DNA from: Candidatus Micrarchaeota archaeon
GTDB taxonomy: Archaea > Micrarchaeota > Micrarchaeia > Anstonellales > Bilamarchaeaceae
DNA length: 64,000 nucleotides
Assembly: GCA_038046765.1 (NCBI GenBank)
Contig: JBBSVN010000004.1
Location: 64,001-128,000 of the forward strand
Direction of reading: 5' to 3'
Part shown: in pieces, positions 18,337-24,445 of the stretch
Layout: each line of letters begins with the position of its first letter
Position numbering within the stretch: position 1 is the first letter of the stretch
Position numbers and translations under genes: made by a program
Notes under the pieces: model-generated
What the model was told of the DNA's origin: nothing
The model's input: only the letters and a program-made list of their open reading frames with translations
Databases searched by the model: none

Positions 18337-18379
18337 CTAATTGCCAATATTTAAATATTTTGCCATTTATAAGATAGAT

Positions 18380-18613
18380 ATGGCAAACGAGAGTATTACA
18401 TTAATTGATCAATACGGAAGGTTAGTTGTACCAAAATCAATAAGAGACAAATTCGAAACTAAGCAAGTTGTTTTGATTTATGATGAAAAAAATAAAGATG
18501 CACATATCATCCCAGTAAAGAATATATCCGAATGGAAAGGAAAATTTAAAGGAATACTAAAAAATTATATGAAAGAACACGAGGAAGACCAGAATGATAC
18601 TCATCGTAGATAG
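18380..18613 (+). CDS. AbrB/MazE-type antitoxin
   Basis: IDQYGRLVVPKSIR; overlaps the downstream PIN gene. Confidence 0.75.
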   Translation: MANESITLIDQYGRLVVPKSIRDKFETKQVVLIYDEKNKDAHIIPVKNISEWKGKFKGILKNYMKEHEEDQNDTHRR

Positions 18614-18971
18614 TTGGGCTTGGCTAGCAACTGGTGAAGAGGGAAGACACGCAGATGAATCAATAGAACTAATAAGCAACAAGAAAAATGAAATTTTAAC
18701 AACAATGCTCAATATATACGAAGTATACTATAGGGTTACGCAAGCGTATGGAGAAGAAAAGGCAAGAAAATTCATAGAATCGATAAAACAAAGAGCCAGA
18801 ATTGTCGAAGTGGATGAGGAGCTAACATTTCTTGCAGCAAATTTGCATTTAAAAGAAAAACTTTCAGTAATAGATGCATTTGTTTATGCTACCGCACTAA
18901 AGGAAAACGGACAAGTTCTTACAGGAGACCCTCATTTTAAAGGAAAGGAAATGGTAATTTTTATTGAATAA
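18594..18971 (+). CDS. vapC: PIN-domain toxin (VapC-like)
   Basis: IVDSWAW, E, LSVIDAFVYA, LTGDPHF. Confidence 0.85.
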   Translation: MILIVDSWAWLATGEEGRHADESIELISNKKNEILTTMLNIYEVYYRVTQAYGEEKARKFIESIKQRARIVEVDEELTFLAANLHLKEKLSVIDAFVYATALKENGQVLTGDPHFKGKEMVIFIE

Positions 18972-18974
18972 TTT

Positions 18975-19166
18975 TTATCCTCTTTTTGGTTTTGATGCAG
19001 ATAGTGAATCCGTCAAACCTTTATTAGCAAAAGCATCATGTGCAATTGGTTTTCCGGATGCCCAAGGTGGAGAACTTAATTTTGCACCTGCAAAAATACT
19101 TTTTGGATTATCCATACAAGTTCGATATTTTGGTTGTTGAGCTTGGTTCACAGAAACGATAGACAT
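18975..19166 (-). CDS. Small hypothetical protein
   Basis: 63-aa ORF preceded by GAGGTG SD. Confidence 0.4.
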   Translation of the reverse strand: MSIVSVNQAQQPKYRTCMDNPKSIFAGAKLSSPPWASGKPIAHDAFANKGLTDSLSASKPKRG

Positions 19167-19287
19167 AAACGCACCTCGAAATTATTTGTTAGTTCGAATT
19201 TGTATTTTATTCCAATTTAAATCCTGCGTTATGTTTGTTACAAAAATATTTATTTTTGTTTTTTATGGAACAGATTGCAAACCTTTT

Positions 19288-19340
19288 TATAGTGGGACAA
19301 CATCAGAGCAGTTACAAACCAATAGATTTATATAGTGGGA
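19288..19340 (+). promoter_or_regulatory. Duplicated TATAGTGGGA boxes upstream of the AbrB operon
   Basis: Identical 10-mers at 19288-19297 and 19331-19340, each with a TATA-like prefix. Confidence 0.45.
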
Positions 19341-19443
19341 AAGAGTTAGTCAATATGTTAAAAGAAATTAAACATTATTTATAATTAAGAAAAGATGTAA
19401 TAGAGGTTTGTAAAATGGTTAAAAGGGATGTTCTTCACGAGGG

Positions 19444-19692
19444 ATTTTCTTCATTGTGCTCGATTCAAAGGCACGCCTAGTTTTACCATTAGAAATTCGT
19501 GACACCCTTAATGTAAAAAAGAACGAGAAAATTCTAATTAGCGTTAGCGATGCTAAGGAAGACAAAATCACTATAGAAATTTCTAAGCCTAGCATAAGCG
19601 ATGAAACGGATTCAATCTCATACTCCAGGAATGGAAAATATGTGAATCGGAGAAATACAGAAACTAAAGACAAACAGAATGAGGTGGATTAA
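19444..19692 (+). CDS. AbrB/MazE-family DNA-binding regulator (non-canonical start or frameshift)
   Basis: IFFIVLDSKARLVLPLEIRDTL AbrB motif; no in-frame ATG (GTG at 19456). Confidence 0.75.
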   Translation: MFFIVLDSKARLVLPLEIRDTLNVKKNEKILISVSDAKEDKITIEISKPSISDETDSISYSRNGKYVNRRNTETKDKQNEVD

Positions 19693-19738
19693 ATGAACAA
19701 AACAAAAAAAGGTGAAAAAGGAAAAGAGGTAAAAAGGG

Positions 19739-20488
19739 ATTTACTTCATCAAAAAAGATAGACAACTGAAGGAAAGAACTCGGAGAGTTTTTCGTTCGTT
19801 ATACAAGCAAGACATAATCTCTGAAGAAGAAATTGATAAAATCGAGATTCAGGAATGCGGGGAAAAATTAGTTCGTATTGAAGACCCAAAGATTATAATA
19901 GAAAAATCCGTAAAAAGACAGAAATTTGATGGAGAGGGTATTCTTTATGCTCGCCAAACCGTTGCAAAAATGCTGTATCAAGCTGCGGATACTTTGCCTT
20001 TAGGTTTTAAACTAAAATTTTTTGATGCATACAGACCATTAGAATTCCAACGAATGTTATTTGAAGAGGAATATCAAAGAACTAAAAAAGCAAATCCTGG
20101 TTTAGATGAGAGCGAAATCAGAAAGATTGTTTTTGTTTCAGTTTACCCTCCTAGCTATGATTTACAGAAACCCCCTCCGCACAGTACAGGTGGTGCGATT
20201 GATCTAACGATTTTAGATCAAAGTGAAAAGGAATTGGATATGGGTTCTAGATATTGTGAATTTGGAGAGAGCATGCACACAAATTACCCGAACTTGACTA
20301 GTTCTCAAGCCAAAAATCGATTGATACTATTAAATACGATGCTCAATGCAGGTTTTGCTAACTTTCCAGGTGAATGGTGGCACTACATGTATGGCGAAAG
20401 AGAGTATGTTGCGTATACATCAAAAATAATAGGAAAGGCAATGACTGCGATATATGCAGGTACAAAAACAAAACAAGAGGTGGAGTAA
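19739..20488 (+). CDS. D-Ala-D-Ala dipeptidase family (M15D, VanX/DdpX-like); frame open from 19733
   Basis: IQECGEKLV...YARQTVA, FDAYRP, PPHSTGGAIDLT, EWWHY motifs; conserved N-terminal part lies upstream of the first ATG (19970). Confidence 0.85.
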   Translation: MYFIKKDRQLKERTRRVFRSLYKQDIISEEEIDKIEIQECGEKLVRIEDPKIIIEKSVKRQKFDGEGILYARQTVAKMLYQAADTLPLGFKLKFFDAYRPLEFQRMLFEEEYQRTKKANPGLDESEIRKIVFVSVYPPSYDLQKPPPHSTGGAIDLTILDQSEKELDMGSRYCEFGESMHTNYPNLTSSQAKNRLILLNTMLNAGFANFPGEWWHYMYGEREYVAYTSKIIGKAMTAIYAGTKTKQEVE

Positions 20489-20534
20489 ATGAATAGAATG
20501 AAACAAGGTGAAAAAGGAAAAGAGGTAAAAAGGG

Positions 20535-21677
20535 ATTTACGGCACAGATACTAAGAAAGTATTTGTTTCGAGAAGTACTTGCGAAATTGAAACAATACGC
20601 AAACCATATTATGGAATAAATGTATCCCAAGGTGAAGAACCAATAGATCAACTAGATTTTCTTTTCTTTGTAAAGCGATTAGGGATTCCAATAACTGTTT
20701 TTATAGCAGGGCAATATGGAGTATTAAACGACAAAAACGGATCTGAATTAGCTAGAAAAGAGATGATAAAGGAAAATCTTTTTAGAAAATTATTTGAAAT
20801 TTTTAAAGTAAATGGACAAACTCTCGTAACCCGTCAATTATGGAGCGGTTCACCTTACTGGCAATGTGTTCTGGATTTAATAGATAATAAAGAAATGCCT
20901 TACAAAGCTAAACAGAATAATGAAAGATTTCAAAGAATAAAAACAGCATTACAAACTGATATTAAAGGATCTGCAAGACAATTATCAGAAAAAGTATTTG
21001 ATAGATTAGCTGATTTTGAGCCATCTTCATTTTATACTTTGTTTGAAGTAGCAGAAGCAAAATATTTTAGAGAAATATCGAAATATGATTCTAAAATAGG
21101 TCCGGAAAGCGAAGAACCTTATGATAGGTTCATTCGGGAATTTATGCCAACAATCCAGTTATACCAACCAATATACTTGGATTCAACATTAGAAAAAACA
21201 AGCAGAGCAATTCCGTATATGACTGGCAAATGGGGCGGAGAAAGAGTTTACTTAACTGACTCAAAAGAGGATTTATTGACAAAAGTTTACAAAGCATCCC
21301 AAAGAACTGATAGAACTCCGGTTTTTTGGAAGATAAATGGTTATTCTGCAGAGGAAACACTAACTATAAATCCATTTGCAAGATTAACTATTTTTGCACT
21401 TGAATCAGCAAGAATAGTTGATTGTTTACCCTTAAGGTTGGGCAATAGAAGCATCTATTCTTCAGAAGAAGCTCTAGAGTTCTTAGATAAATCAGGTTCC
21501 CGAGATTTACCTAAAATGGCTGGCGTTGTGGGAGAAGCGATTTGGAATTACATCCTAAGGCCAGTTCAACAACCCCTTATAAAAAAATACTTCGAAATTT
21601 CGCGCAGTTATAATGACTTTGGTGAAGAATATTTTCGTAAAGAAATAGCGCACATGAGGAGGGATGATCTACTATGA
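20535..21677 (+). CDS. Uncharacterised protein, possibly class I aaRS-like (TyrRS/TrpRS/CDPS-like); frame open from 20529
   Basis: YYGINVS, TVFIAGQYGVLN, YTLFEVAEA, KIGPESEEPYD; 76 open codons before the first ATG (20763). Confidence 0.55.
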   Translation: MYGTDTKKVFVSRSTCEIETIRKPYYGINVSQGEEPIDQLDFLFFVKRLGIPITVFIAGQYGVLNDKNGSELARKEMIKENLFRKLFEIFKVNGQTLVTRQLWSGSPYWQCVLDLIDNKEMPYKAKQNNERFQRIKTALQTDIKGSARQLSEKVFDRLADFEPSSFYTLFEVAEAKYFREISKYDSKIGPESEEPYDRFIREFMPTIQLYQPIYLDSTLEKTSRAIPYMTGKWGGERVYLTDSKEDLLTKVYKASQRTDRTPVFWKINGYSAEETLTINPFARLTIFALESARIVDCLPLRLGNRSIYSSEEALEFLDKSGSRDLPKMAGVVGEAIWNYILRPVQQPLIKKYFEISRSYNDFGEEYFRKEIAHMRRDDLL

Positions 21678-22387
21678 AAAAAATTGGGATTTTAGGGGGG
21701 ATGGGACCAGAAAGTACGGCCCATACATACATGAAAATGATTGAATATTGTCAGAAAGAGTATGGGGCAAAACAAGATGCTGATTTCCCCCCAATTGTCA
21801 TTTATAGTTGCCCTATTCCGGACGTAGTAAACATAAATAATAAAGAAGTCGAGCTACTGGAAAACTTAGAAAGTGGAATAGATTTGCTAAAGAACGCAGG
21901 TTGTAAATTTGCAATAATTCCTTGCAATTCAGTACAGAGTTTTTTACCTGTACTTAGCAAAAAACTTCCGATAATTTCAATAGTCGAAGAAACTATCGAA
22001 GAACTAACGAAATTAGGAATAAAGAAAGTCGGACTCCTAGCTACGCAAACAACGCTTTCTAAAAGAATTTATCAACAGGCTTTGGAAAAACAAGGAATCG
22101 AAATGATTCTGCCAGAAAACCAAAAAGAAGTAACAGAGGTAATTAGGAAAATCCTTGAGGGTAAGAAAGAAGAAACCAAAGAAAAATTATACAACATAAT
22201 AAATAATCTGAAACGCAAAGGTGCAGGTGCAGTAATATTAGCGTGTACAGATTTACCATTAATAGTTGACAAAAAAGATTTTGATATCGCAATATTAGAC
22301 ACTGTAGAAATTCTCGCAAAAGCCGCAGTTAAAAAATATTACCAGTTAATTGATTATAGGTTAAAAAGTTCGAGGTCAAATAAATGA
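21674..22387 (+). CDS. Aspartate/glutamate racemase family (PLP-independent)
   Basis: IGILGGMGPEST, IPCNS and LACTDLP catalytic cysteines. Confidence 0.92.
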   Translation: MKKIGILGGMGPESTAHTYMKMIEYCQKEYGAKQDADFPPIVIYSCPIPDVVNINNKEVELLENLESGIDLLKNAGCKFAIIPCNSVQSFLPVLSKKLPIISIVEETIEELTKLGIKKVGLLATQTTLSKRIYQQALEKQGIEMILPENQKEVTEVIRKILEGKKEETKEKLYNIINNLKRKGAGAVILACTDLPLIVDKKDFDIAILDTVEILAKAAVKKYYQLIDYRLKSSRSNK

Positions 22388-23619
22388 AAGGAACACCAAA
22401 AGGAATGCGGGATATACTCCCTGAAGACGCAATGCTGCGAAGGCAAGTGCTAGAACTGGTTGAAAAAGTTTATCGAAGTTACGGTTATGTTCCAATTGAA
22501 ACTCCTGCAATTGAATATTTATCAACACTTAAAGCAAAAGGCGGAGAAGAAATTAACAAACAAATATTTATTTTCAAAGATGAAGAAGTTGGATTACGCT
22601 TTGATTTAACCGTCCCTCTTGCTCGAGTAGCAGCTACAAATGTATTTACTAAGCCATTCAAACGATACGCATTTGCACCAGTCTGGAGATATGAAGAACC
22701 TCAAAAAGGAAGGTTTCGGGAATTTTGGCAGGCAGATATTGATATTATTGGAACTAAAGGTATGCGGGCTGAAGCTGAATTATTGACAGCAGCTAGAAAC
22801 GCACTAGTTGCACTTGGATTTAAGGAACTAAGAATTTTACTAAATAACCGAAAAATACTTGATGCATTAGCTAAGAAACTAGAAATAGAAGACAAAAAAG
22901 AATCAGTATTCAGATTACTAGATAAGATAGACAAAGTTGGAAAAGAAAAAGTTGAAGAAGAATTAAATGAAGTAATTGGAAGCGAAAAAACTAAGGAACT
23001 ACTCTCAATTCTAACTGTTTCGGGCGATAACAAAAAGAAACTTGAAATAATTAAATCAATAAGCGAAGACGGCGCAAAAGAACTGGAGGACATTTTAGCA
23101 CTAACTAACTTTGAAATCGAAATAGATTTGCTACTTGTTCGTGGTTTAGGATACTATACTGGACCAATATTTGAAATAAAAGGTAGCGAGAATATAGGTT
23201 CAATAGCAGGTGGCGGAAGGTATGATAATCTTCTAGCGGTTTATGGAAAGGAAGACGCTGCAGTTGGAATTAGTTTAGGAATTGAGCGAATAATTACACT
23301 TTTAAAAGAAAAACAAATTCAACTAAAGCGAACTTATAGTAGCGTACTAGTTGCAAATGTAAAACCAGAGTTCTATTCTTATGCAGCACAAATAGCGGGA
23401 AAACTACGAGAAAATGGAATAAATGTAGAGACAGATTTAAACGAACGAAACTTAAGAAAACAATTTGATTATGCAAATTCTTTAGGGATAAGTTATGTAA
23501 TAATTGTCGGGGAAAAGGAAATTAAAGAAAACAAGGTAACGCTAAGGAATATGAATTTAGGGGATGAAAAATTCCTAGACTTAGGGGCAACAGTTAGCCT
23601 TTTAAAAGCTTCTGTGTAA
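22384..23619 (+). CDS. hisS: Histidyl-tRNA synthetase
   Basis: PKGMRD, LRFDLTVP, GRFREFWQ, LVRGLGYYTG, GGGRYD. Confidence 0.96.
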   Translation: MKGTPKGMRDILPEDAMLRRQVLELVEKVYRSYGYVPIETPAIEYLSTLKAKGGEEINKQIFIFKDEEVGLRFDLTVPLARVAATNVFTKPFKRYAFAPVWRYEEPQKGRFREFWQADIDIIGTKGMRAEAELLTAARNALVALGFKELRILLNNRKILDALAKKLEIEDKKESVFRLLDKIDKVGKEKVEEELNEVIGSEKTKELLSILTVSGDNKKKLEIIKSISEDGAKELEDILALTNFEIEIDLLLVRGLGYYTGPIFEIKGSENIGSIAGGGRYDNLLAVYGKEDAAVGISLGIERIITLLKEKQIQLKRTYSSVLVANVKPEFYSYAAQIAGKLRENGINVETDLNERNLRKQFDYANSLGISYVIIVGEKEIKENKVTLRNMNLGDEKFLDLGATVSLLKASV

Positions 23620-23623
23620 ATTT

Positions 23624-24445
23624 ATGTATATGTCTGGAAAAATGATTGAATACATGAGACGGGGTAGGAGTTCAAGACCTAGCCGTTTTTCAGCACTTCT
23701 TTTAGGTGCAGTAGCATCTTTTTCATCAAGATTACTAAATGCAGATGAACCTGCTACAAAAAATAGACCAGCAGTTACTACTGTAGCAAACAAAGCAGAT
23801 GATGATTTAAGGCGAAAAATTGTAGATGGGGCAATTGACCAAATAAGCAAAGAATATTGTGGCATTGGAGGTACAAACCCAAAAAATAAACATTGTTTAA
23901 ACTGTTTAGGATTAGTATATGCTGCATTAGAAAAAATAGGAGTAAACTCACAAAAATTAAGCCGAAACGGAACGCAAATGATTCCACAACTTTTAGGCTT
24001 GCATGGGATTGCAACATACCAATTCAAAGCAGATATGACAAATGACAAATTATTTTTACTTGTGCTCGAACAAGAGGATGGCAAGGTAAAGGAAACATTT
24101 ATTGAAAATGTCACCAAGAAAAGTCTTGAGAAAAATCTGCCACCAGGATATGTATTATTTTTGGTAAATCCTAGGCCAAATAAAAATGAAAACGGCCAAT
24201 TAAAAGAAAATCCTGTTGCAATAATTAATACACAAACAGGAAAACTTAATAGATATTGGATTTGGCACACAGGTATAAGCTCGGATTCGCTAGGGGAAAT
24301 GGTTCATGCTTCTTATGTACCTGAAGGGAATGTAATGCACGGACACGTCCAATCGGAAGATTTAACAGCATTCGTTTCGAATTTAGGTTACAGTGGAGTT
24401 ATTGCTGTAAAACCAAACTTTGCAGCACTTAGGAAAGTTAAATAG
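23624..24445 (+). CDS. NlpC/P60-like papain-fold protein with signal-like N-terminus
   Basis: NCLGLVYAAL (Cys), WHTGI (His), MVHAS. Confidence 0.65.
   Translation: MYMSGKMIEYMRRGRSSRPSRFSALLLGAVASFSSRLLNADEPATKNRPAVTTVANKADDDLRRKIVDGAIDQISKEYCGIGGTNPKNKHCLNCLGLVYAALEKIGVNSQKLSRNGTQMIPQLLGLHGIATYQFKADMTNDKLFLLVLEQEDGKVKETFIENVTKKSLEKNLPPGYVLFLVNPRPNKNENGQLKENPVAIINTQTGKLNRYWIWHTGISSDSLGEMVHASYVPEGNVMHGHVQSEDLTAFVSNLGYSGVIAVKPNFAALRKVK

Follow-up and report, generated by a model that had tools for sequence, protein, structure and literature searches.

A candidate +1 frameshift cassette that may couple shortage of histidine and other amino acids to gene expression in a family of DPANN archaea

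Introduction

How are genes translated whose reading frames open without a canonical start codon nearby? Three consecutive genes in a 64,000-nucleotide stretch of a Candidatus Micrarchaeota genome (assembly GCA_038046765.1, contig JBBSVN010000004.1, positions 64,001 to 128,000 of the forward strand) raise this question. The whole stretch is referred to as the window, and plain coordinates are positions within it. The genes encode an AbrB/MazE-like protein, an M15 dipeptidase and a paralogue of tyrosyl-tRNA synthetase (TyrRS), here called gene 3, and each is overlapped at its 5' end by a short leader open reading frame (ORF) that lies in another frame and is opened by a Shine-Dalgarno (SD) sequence and an ATG. 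In bacteria, the release factor 2 (RF2) gene prfB is controlled by an autoregulatory +1 frameshift at AGG GGG UAU CUU UGA C. The archaeal leaders contain a comparable signal, xGG GAU NUN CUU followed by one further codon, which we term the sensed codon, and the real gene lies in the +1 frame. Judged from comparative sequence evidence, it is probable that this signal acts as a prfB-like +1 frameshift on an empty A site, by which the shortage of one amino acid turns on the genes concerned with it.

Results

Three genes that overlap out-of-frame leaders

The source genome (1,515,479 bp, G+C 34%, completeness 89.7%) belongs to the Micrarchaeota, a DPANN lineage; a small-subunit rRNA fragment scores 594 bits with the archaeal model versus 447 bits with the bacterial one, and the 16S 3' end, ...GAUCACCUCAU, gives the SD consensus GAGGUGAU. 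The initial annotation of the window had described three leaders with SD and ATG ahead of the three genes, and all three are present in the sequence (Table 1). The M15 frame lies +1 of leader 2, is open from 19733 and reaches its first ATG, GTG or TTG at 19970; the gene-3 frame lies +1 of leader 3, is open from 20529 and reaches its first canonical start at 20763. Both open directly past a TAA (19730-32 and 20526-28), as annotated, and neither offers a canonical start for 78-79 codons. The lack of an ATG at the natural 5' ends, also asserted there, needs one correction: the AbrB-like frame, which lies +2 of leader 1, does have a GTG at 19456, two codons past its second signal. Since the PF01427 domain (E 1.6e-20) spans residues 61-225 of the open M15 frame, a start at 19970 would truncate it, and by homologue alignment a start at 20763 would drop about 78 residues of gene 3, invariant ones included. 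The best NCBIfam match of the M15 frame, below cut-off, is a D-Ala-D-Ala dipeptidase, and the AbrB-like protein gives weak PF04014 matches in 3 of 3 orthologues (E 0.0015-0.011, likewise below cut-off).

Searched on both strands, the pattern AGGGAT.T.C..CA[CT] matches the genome exactly four times, at 19424, 19440, 19735 and 20531 of the window, which are the four sites originally pointed out; the motif is indeed shared by all of them, except that gene 3 has CGG where the others have CUU. An identical 36-nt block (19709-19744 and 20505-20540), already seen in the initial annotation, lies within a longer direct repeat of 64 nt (19681-19744 and 20477-20540) with 91% identity, and a 34-mer taken from the block has exactly 2 copies in the 1.5-Mb genome (reversed control: 0). 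Taken by itself, the 9-mer AAAAGGGAT does not significantly exceed chance in the window: it occurs 3 times for 1.34 expected, and 17 of 100 shuffles reach 3. The 15-mer AAAAGGGATTTACTT has three exact copies in the genome, all at gene 5' ends, for an expectation of about 0.01 by a rough base-composition estimate.

At genes 2 and 3, the frame breaks are not products of assembly. Over 19715-20534 and 20511-20700, contigs from samples X1 (a possible source) and X3 match the window, with neither a difference nor a gap; assembler contigs end at the 36-nt repeat, where the depth is roughly that of both flanks added together, and assembly error at the gene-2 (M15) and gene-3 sites is thereby excluded. 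One metatranscriptome contig spans 19851-20002 only, too little to claim transcription.

The sensed codon matches the pathway of the gene behind it

The signal is not confined to the three genes. In the source genome, AAAAGGGATTTACTT also heads two genes outside the window: the anthranilate synthase I gene trpE, just beyond its edge (contig C4:57482, minus strand), and a gene for a small HTH_7 protein (C6:8597). Relative to either gene, the SD-led leader is in the -1 frame; CTT is followed by TGG at trpE and by TGC at the HTH_7 gene. Of 40 related genomes searched with a 14-mer, 6 contain the signal, with 1 match for the reversed control. When 176 genomes of the order were searched with the pattern ATG N(0-30) AGGGATTTACTT, the ATG-preceded signal appeared in 35, among them 33 of the 98 genomes of the source organism's own family and 1 of 3 of family f8; it was absent from the next two families in size, f6 (0/42) and f9 (0/19), and the reversed pattern gave 5 matches. 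The search yielded 48 distinct sites, and the cassette architecture spans several genera. Seven sites were rejected as interior to ordinary ORFs or lacking the architecture (L021, L027, L030, L034, L035, L051 and C12:94568 of the source genome, the last judged from its flanks only; L numbers denote loci), and the extra motif matches in the source genome at C10:39954, C12:94568 and C12:27648 are likewise interior to ordinary ORFs or have an ordinary ATG. A looser 13-nt pattern, run on a phylum sample of 401 genomes, matched 36 of 75 genomes in f1, 4 of 94 in f13 and 9 of 83 in f14; since the f13 and f14 matches look by eye no commoner than the (uncounted) reversed control, we make no claim beyond the family, except for one f8 genome (L011) and one record titled Ca. 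Iainarchaeum (L066).

What might these signals sense? The +1 frames were translated and scanned with family models, and at 24 of 24 identified amino-acid enzyme genes the sensed codon is the cognate one: hisG (6 genes), hisD (3), proB (3), proC (2), trpE (9) and cysteine synthase (1). Because the sites are related by descent within six gene families, the independent count is nearer six than 24. Two sets were collected by other means than the motif. Among trpE relatives chosen by protein similarity, 8 of 16 carry the cassette, always with TGG, and the other 8 have ordinary SD and ATG starts; signal variants in this set read AAG GAT GTT CTT, AGG GAT GTA CTT, AGG GAT GTA CGT and GGG GAT TTA CTT. 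For hisG, which is present in 33 of 99 family genomes, 30 loci were fetched and 29 examined: 20 are genes internal to an operon, with ordinary starts after a hisB-like ORF, 6 carry the cassette with a CAY codon, 2 have other ordinary starts and 1 could not be oriented. Five of the six hisG cassettes read AGG GGT (TTA or CTG) CTT CAC, a form that the earlier patterns had missed and that is closer to the AGGGGG of prfB. A His signal also lies within 4.5 kb 5' of hisG on the same strand in 13 genomes, so that a signal-bearing AbrB-like or hisD gene leads his operons. His-codon sites further head the AbrB-like gene (23 motif copies), the gene-3 family (5), a radical-SAM/SPASM gene and genes for unassigned proteins of 221-470 aa.

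Could the frame breaks nevertheless be sequencing errors or pseudogenes, or mark a constitutive shift that senses nothing? The source genome is a metagenome bin, and some signals (L005, L017, L022, L025, L038) head short +1 ORFs only and may be remnants. However, the architecture recurs in 33 of 98 family genomes and in different genera, independent contigs are identical, and the downstream ORFs are intact and conserved. Neither decay nor a constitutive shift would lead one to expect a cognate codon at every enzyme gene. We regard these explanations as extremely unlikely.

Predicted start of translation in the leader and shift at the sensed codon

For first-copy or single sites, SD-led start codons (SD core 5 to 8 nt before the start codon) were sought within 45 nt 5' of the signal. 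The 48 sites yielded 48 such starts, of which 47 share the frame of the leader, one that of the main gene and none the third frame. A leader start is preceded by a suitably spaced SD at 38 of the 48 sites, most often by 7 nt; for an ATT or ATG in the +1 frame, the figure is 10 of 48.

Stop codons delimit the point at which the frame changes. Four sites (L018@1551, L029@430, L043@2063 and L043@2318) read AGG/TGG GAT TTA GTT CAT, which in the +1 frame is GGG ATT TAG TTC, and this frame opens only at nt +10 of the signal. ORFs of 68, 92, 71 and 359 aa begin exactly at the TTC, three of them AbrB-like and one of the gene-3 family, and in these ORFs a canonical start first appears 13 to 88 codons downstream. 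At three sites, a leader stop (nt +15) directly follows the sensed codon. From the in-signal TAG and these leader stops, it follows that the shift falls between [C/G]TT and the codon after the sensed one; on this mapping, the shift is predicted to occur when CUU occupies the P site and the sensed codon the A site. The AbrB-like gene bears two signals in 13 of 13 loci, spaced by 16 nt (this window), 19 nt (11 loci) or 28 nt. All of these spacings are 1 mod 3, and a first +1 shift therefore puts the second signal in frame, which agrees with the two successive shifts proposed in the initial annotation for the copies 16 nt apart. Past the signal, the leaders stop after 1 to 38 codons and the +1 ORFs run for up to 472 aa; conserved protein sequence starts at the signal itself, 5' of the leader stop.

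These data bear on an alternative that had been raised together with the frameshift, namely that the main genes start at an AUU or AUG within the signal (GGG AUU UAC) and that the leader is a stalling regulatory upstream ORF without any frameshift. It has real attractions: in most copies, GGG is followed in the +1 frame by ATT or ATG, translation of the leader would explain the match of codon and pathway equally well, and in window genes 2 and 3 a GAGGT lies about 7-8 nt 5' of the ATT. This GAGGT is present as annotated; it is, however, peculiar to the duplicated block of the source genome. Against an in-signal start, the ATT is followed by TAG in the final frame at the four sites above, yet ORFs of 68 to 359 aa follow, which excludes such a start there; the codon is ATC in one gene-3 orthologue and GTT or GTC in five hisG loci; and the SD counts favour the leader start. 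In addition, a ribosome stalled at CUU would cover a start 6 to 8 nt 5' of it, so that starvation would repress the gene, the wrong direction. Initiation within the signal is thus very unlikely.

Alternatively, the leader could sense by stalling and act through another output, be it mRNA structure or stability, transcription attenuation, or termination and reinitiation downstream. Leader peptides with cognate codons are a hallmark of bacterial attenuation, and canonical starts just past the signal exist in proC and in the AbrB-like gene of the source genome. But there is no excess RNA structure around the signals (n=32): the mean z is -0.12 for +15..+75 and -0.25 for -40..+60, with values below -2 in 1 of 32 and 3 of 32, respectively, and an Rfam scan of 18900-23700 returned only a sub-threshold small nucleolar RNA (snoRNA) match within gene 3. 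Reinitiation is difficult to reconcile with conserved protein sequence that begins before the leader stop, with the long start-free stretches of the M15 gene and gene 3, and with the variable distance from signal to leader stop, which leaves no fixed restart point. We consider such an output unlikely.

A probable signal at the RNA level and a proposed model for the shift

In 60 curated copies of the signal, GGAT (positions 2-5), T at position 7 and T at position 11 are invariant; within the P-site codon, 55 copies have C at position 9, 59 have T at position 10 and all 60 have T at position 11. The pattern used to collect most copies had these positions, CTT included, fixed in advance, whereas the motif played no part in finding the second copies or the sets of trpE and hisG genes. 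Copies of the latter kind have AGG, AAG, TGG or GGG as first codon, and GAT is replaced by GGT in 6 of them. The codon proposed for the E site, NTN, is TTA, GTN, TTY, TTG, CTA or CTG, and the P-site codon is CTT, less often GTT (at least 5 sites) and once each CGT (L061), CGG (window gene 3) and CTC (L046), the last two lying outside the 60 copies. A purine-rich element, GG(G)AU or, in the GGU copies, AGGGGU, lies exactly 3 nt 5' of the P-site codon, without exception in the curated copies and the variants listed. Since the encoded peptide varies (R/K/W/G, then D/G) while the G-run stays at its fixed spacing, the signal probably acts at the RNA level. The duplex of motif and 16S tail reaches -7.8 kcal/mol, within about the top 4% of random 15-mers (mean -3.1; 4.1% reach -7). 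The sensed codons are CAY, UGG, CCA, UGC and UUC, all of which begin with U or C; this fits, as re-pairing from CUU to UUY by a GAG anticodon requires such a base, and ARAGORN finds a tRNA-Leu(GAG). As the shift site, a 'hungry' AGG or an AAA-AGG slip was considered and rejected: AGG is the second most used Arg codon, and by the stop codons the shift maps 3' of it. Only the source genome has the A-run before AGG; relatives mostly have GGA AGG.

The ARAGORN run itself calls only 8 tRNA genes in 1.5 Mb, or 12 with introns allowed, three of them with long introns of 22 to 131 nt. Presumably, most tRNAs of this genome are non-canonical or unassembled.

We propose the following sequence of events. 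A ribosome would start at the SD-led leader AUG, 2 to 14 codons 5' of the signal, and read xGG GAU NUN CUU. At that point, the 16S 3' tail may pair with GG(G)AU, the purine-rich element that precedes CUU by one E-site codon. CUU, decoded by tRNA-Leu(GAG), would then occupy the P site and the sensed codon, here CAU or CAC for His, the A site. With His-tRNA plentiful, the leader would be read on and end within a few codons, giving no gene product; with His-tRNA scarce, the A site would stay empty, the ribosome would move by +1 (from CUU C to UUC) and the gene would be made as a fusion to the leader. A shortage of histidine would in this way turn on the AbrB-like regulator, the M15 dipeptidase and the TyrRS-like paralogue, and also the racemase and histidyl-tRNA synthetase (HisRS) encoded downstream, provided that the genes are co-transcribed through hisS. 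The AbrB-like regulator, with its two successive shifts, would respond more steeply. Such induction upon starvation is what one would expect of genes for biosynthesis, scavenging and synthetases.

The initial annotation had already tied an SD-stimulated, prfB-like +1 shift to the supply of histidine, and the hisG, hisD, trpE, proB, proC and cysteine synthase sites of relatives, together with the conserved spacing of the double signal and the stop-codon mapping, support that proposal. Its view of the sensor needs one amendment: a His codon does stand in the place of the stop, and the likely trigger is an empty A site, not the binding of uncharged tRNA.

Several observations weigh against the model. 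Pairing of the SD-like element with the 16S tail depends on a bulge and is of no more than moderate strength. The P-site variants CGG, CGU, CUC and GUU re-pair poorly or not at all in the +1 frame, so simple slippage is not the whole mechanism; by analogy with yeast Ty3, out-of-frame binding in the A site may contribute. The sensed codons and AGG are ordinary in usage (per 1000: CAT 9.8, CAC 5.0, CCA 17.7, TGG 6.8, AGG 6.4; CTT is ordinary too), and each signal has a single sensed codon. Ten of the 48 sites have no SD-led leader start by the pattern used, and the prevalence of ATT or ATG after GGG counts here as well. A canonical start follows soon after the signal in proC (ATG 8 codons on), the AbrB-like gene (GTG 19456) and trpE of the source genome (TTG), and in these genes frameshifting may not be the only route. 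The site lists were chosen partly by the motif itself, and the 60-copy table omits about nine sites whose +1 ORFs are short (L005, L016, L017@1524, L022@1374, L025@1512, L023@1351, L028, L038 and L046); L028 has a Phe codon, the others have His codons. What the sequences show is the anatomy of the cassette, its conservation, the agreement of codon and pathway, the frame in which translation would begin and the position of the shift site; the shift as such, its increase upon starvation, the part played by the 16S pairing and co-transcription through hisS are inferred from them.

Gene 3 and other proteins behind the signal

Gene 3 has no Pfam match and no usable Atlas match, and a related-loci search with it returned none. 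An AlphaFold2 model built from six homologues (pLDDT 78.4, pTM 0.79) gave archaeal TyrRS as its best Foldseek matches (E ~1e-9, probability 1.00, TM 0.5-0.64, 15-19% identity), which it matches across nearly their full length. The place of the HIGH motif reads, by eye, EP(L/I)DQ(L/F)D in the alignment; the region appears degenerate, and gene 3 is therefore probably not a working synthetase. A His signal heads the family in 6 of 6 aligned homologues, and the orthologues carry CTT or GTT plus CAT. The Rfam match within gene 3, at 21104-21185, is to the C/D-box snoRNA snoZ43 (25.3 bits versus a gathering score of 43, E 0.059) and is probably due to chance.

Other proteins are found behind the signal. 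Proteins of 360 to 470 aa without a Pfam or NCBIfam match stand under His-codon signals in several genera (Table 1); those of L050 and L020 are homologous (E 5e-44), and that of L054 has the same RLPYV N-terminus. A relation of gene 3 to this 'RLPYV' family was considered and dropped, as none is detectable (hhalign probability 0.2). In one genus, a radical-SAM/SPASM protein (L008, minus strand, 462-1511) stands under a His signal directly 3' of the AbrB-like gene; its weak best NCBIfam matches are MoaA-like and peptide-maturase families. The small HTH_7 protein (C6:8585-8810; L013:1488-1707; also L011, L015 and L047) stands behind the cassette, with Cys as the sensed codon at 3 loci and Phe at 1 and no obvious link to either amino acid, and in the source genome a 110-aa protein of no assigned function comes next after it.

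Some His signals with SD-led leaders have +1 ORFs of only 20 to 42 aa, and several of these stand directly 5' of hisG or of a further gene headed by a signal. Such ORFs may be what is left of an AbrB-like lead gene since lost, or they may encode small regulatory peptides.

Upstream of the three genes, at 18341-18971, a second AbrB-like ORF (90 aa) overlaps a PIN-domain ORF (PF01850, E 3e-16); by sequence, the pair looks like a VapBC-type toxin-antitoxin system with ordinary starts.

Table 1. Positions of the cassette parts and genes in the window, and loci of signal-led genes in relatives
Feature	Position	Strand	Remarks
SD core GAGGT	19403..19407	+	7 nt 5' of leader-1 ATG; from sequence
Leader ORF 1, zero frame, 21 aa (MVKRDVLHEGFSSLCSIQRHA)	19415..19480	+	
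Shift signal copy 1, AGG GAT GTT CTT CAC	19424..19438	+	proposed P-site CTT 19433-35; sensed His codon 19436-38; post-shift codon ACG at 19437
Intermediate-frame ORF (MFFTRDFLH...)	19428..19502	+	second signal in its frame
Shift signal copy 2, AGG GAT TTT CTT CAT	19440..19454	+	16 nt (1 mod 3) past copy 1; proposed P-site CTT 19449-51; sensed His codon 19452-54
AbrB/MazE-like (swapped-hairpin) protein frame	19453..19692	+	two +1 shifts needed
64-nt repeat copy A	19681..19744	+	SD GAGGTGGA, TAA-ATG junction, leader 2, signal
Leader ORF 2, 22 aa (MNKTKKGEKGKEVKRDLLHQKR)	19693..19761	+	
Gene-2 shift signal, AGG GAT TTA CTT CAT	19735..19749	+	proposed P-site CTT 19744-46; sensed His codon 19747-49
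M15 (VanX-like) dipeptidase frame, post-shift	19748..20488	+	
64-nt repeat copy B	20477..20540	+	91% identity to copy A
Leader ORF 3, 21 aa (MNRMKQGEKGKEVKRDLRHRY)	20489..20554	+	
Gene-3 variant signal, AGG GAT TTA CGG CAC	20531..20545	+	CGG replaces CTT; sensed His codon 20543-45
Gene 3, TyrRS-like class I aminoacyl-tRNA synthetase paralogue	20544..21677	+	
Amino-acid racemase	21674..22387	+	overlaps the stop of gene 3; PF01177 E 2.9e-35; TIGR00035 158.6 bits, above cut-off
hisS, histidine-tRNA ligase	22384..23619	+	last gene of the putative operon; TIGR00442 384.6 bits, cut-off 286.75
Histidinol dehydrogenase (hisD)	L014, L032, L033		sensed codon His CAT/CAC
ATP phosphoribosyltransferase (hisG)	L023, plus five hisG loci found later		sensed codon His CAT/CAC
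Glutamate 5-kinase (proB)	L006, L037, L041		sensed codon Pro CCA
Pyrroline-5-carboxylate reductase (proC)	L006, L052		sensed codon Pro CCA
Anthranilate synthase I (trpE)	9 loci		sensed codon Trp TGG
Cysteine synthase	L049		sensed codon Cys TGC; TIGR01136 360.7 bits, above cut-off
Unassigned protein under His signal	L020:1535-2944		
Unassigned protein under His signal	L050:1955-3037	-	
Unassigned protein under His signal	L054:578-1681		
Unassigned protein under His signal	L024:252-1511	-	
His signal with short +1 ORF	L017:1524		
His signal with short +1 ORF	L022:1374	-	
His signal with short +1 ORF	L025:1512	-	
His signal with short +1 ORF	L023:1351		
His signal with short +1 ORF	L005:1502		
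His signal with short +1 ORF	L038:1506	-	

Discussion

The closest known relative of the proposed switch is the frameshift of prfB, which has been described as both sensor and effector in a passage of a 2016 review (PMC5009743). Both combine a short zero-frame ORF with a product encoded in the +1 frame; the P-site codon is CUU, preceded at exactly 3 nt by a purine-rich, SD-like stretch, and an A site that fills slowly would act as the sensor in the cassette as it does in prfB. Some copies of the cassette even read AGGGGU. Unlike in prfB, the A site holds a sense codon (CAY, UGG, CCA, UGC or UUC) instead of UGA, so the factor sensed would be a charged tRNA and not RF2. Moreover, the cassette is archaeal, it is movable, sitting on many unrelated genes with four or five sensed codons and on none related to release factors, it can occur in tandem on one gene, and it tolerates P-site variants that cannot re-pair.

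How does the cassette compare with the systems by which bacteria read the supply of charged tRNA? As in leader-peptide attenuation (hisL, trpL, pheL), the leader contains a codon of the regulated pathway and the ribosome does the reading. However, the leader has a single sensed codon where attenuators have a run, no terminator or antiterminator hairpins were detected, and the main ORF, which opens within the signal in a frame other than that of the leader, overlaps the leader and often lacks a start of its own. Frameshifting at E. coli pheL has been described as incidental (PMC5009743). The T-box riboswitch is likewise a cis-acting sensor of tRNA charging with a swappable specifier codon, but it is a structured RNA that binds tRNA directly, whereas the cassette shows neither such structure nor an Rfam match. 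Antizyme offers another feedback loop in which a frameshift is both sensor and effector, in that case for polyamines and at a stop codon.

Mechanistically, the cassette resembles hungry-codon +1 frameshifting, as in Gallant's starvation experiments and the yeast elements Ty1 (CUU AGG C) and Ty3. In Ty elements, the A-site codon is constitutively rare and sets a fixed ratio; in the cassette, cellular regulation would be at stake and the sensed codons are common, so that decoding would become slow only on starvation. Ty3-like sites are described as shifting without re-pairing (PMC5009743; PMC12661321), which may explain the CGG, CGU and CUC variants. The relevant sections of the 2016 review list regulatory frameshift sensors for RF2, polyamines and antibiotics and treat hungry-codon shifting as experimental or incidental, not as a natural amino-acid sensor (PMC5009743). 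A 2021 review of archaeal recoding gives, in the portion consulted here, one proven cellular frameshift (fucA1, -1) and no cellular +1 case (PMC8211752). Full-text literature searches, with subscription-only literature outside their scope, turned up, among the matches listed, neither a precedent for the system nor an archaeal cis-acting amino-acid sensor based on tRNA charging.

What would a histidine sensor be for in this organism? Neither hisD nor hisG was detected in the source genome, whose completeness is 89.7%. Judging by gene content, the organism may be a histidine auxotroph that has retained its His-sensing cassette on scavenging and charging genes, and a cassette acting on a dipeptidase, a TyrRS-like paralogue, a racemase and hisS would fit a combined response of scavenging and charging. 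For the family as a whole, we find it reasonably likely, with less confidence than we place in the frameshift itself, that these DPANN archaea run their starvation response through one portable frameshift specifier of about 15 nt. Its target would be set by a single codon, it would be copied from gene to gene, as the 64-nt repeat shows, and in tandem it would give a squared response. The TyrRS-like paralogue, the 'RLPYV' family and the radical-SAM enzyme would then be new players in histidine economy.

In practice, gene callers truncate or miss cassette-led genes, and several protein families of no assigned function are now given a context of histidine shortage. If confirmed, the cassette would be the basis of the first natural regulon built on starvation-induced +1 frameshifting, and, being a compact sensor that is retargeted by one codon change, it would be useful for synthetic biology. 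The portable cassette would, if this picture is true, be an archaeal counterpart of T-box and attenuation control, and would give a direct handle on amino-acid supply in uncultivated DPANN archaea.

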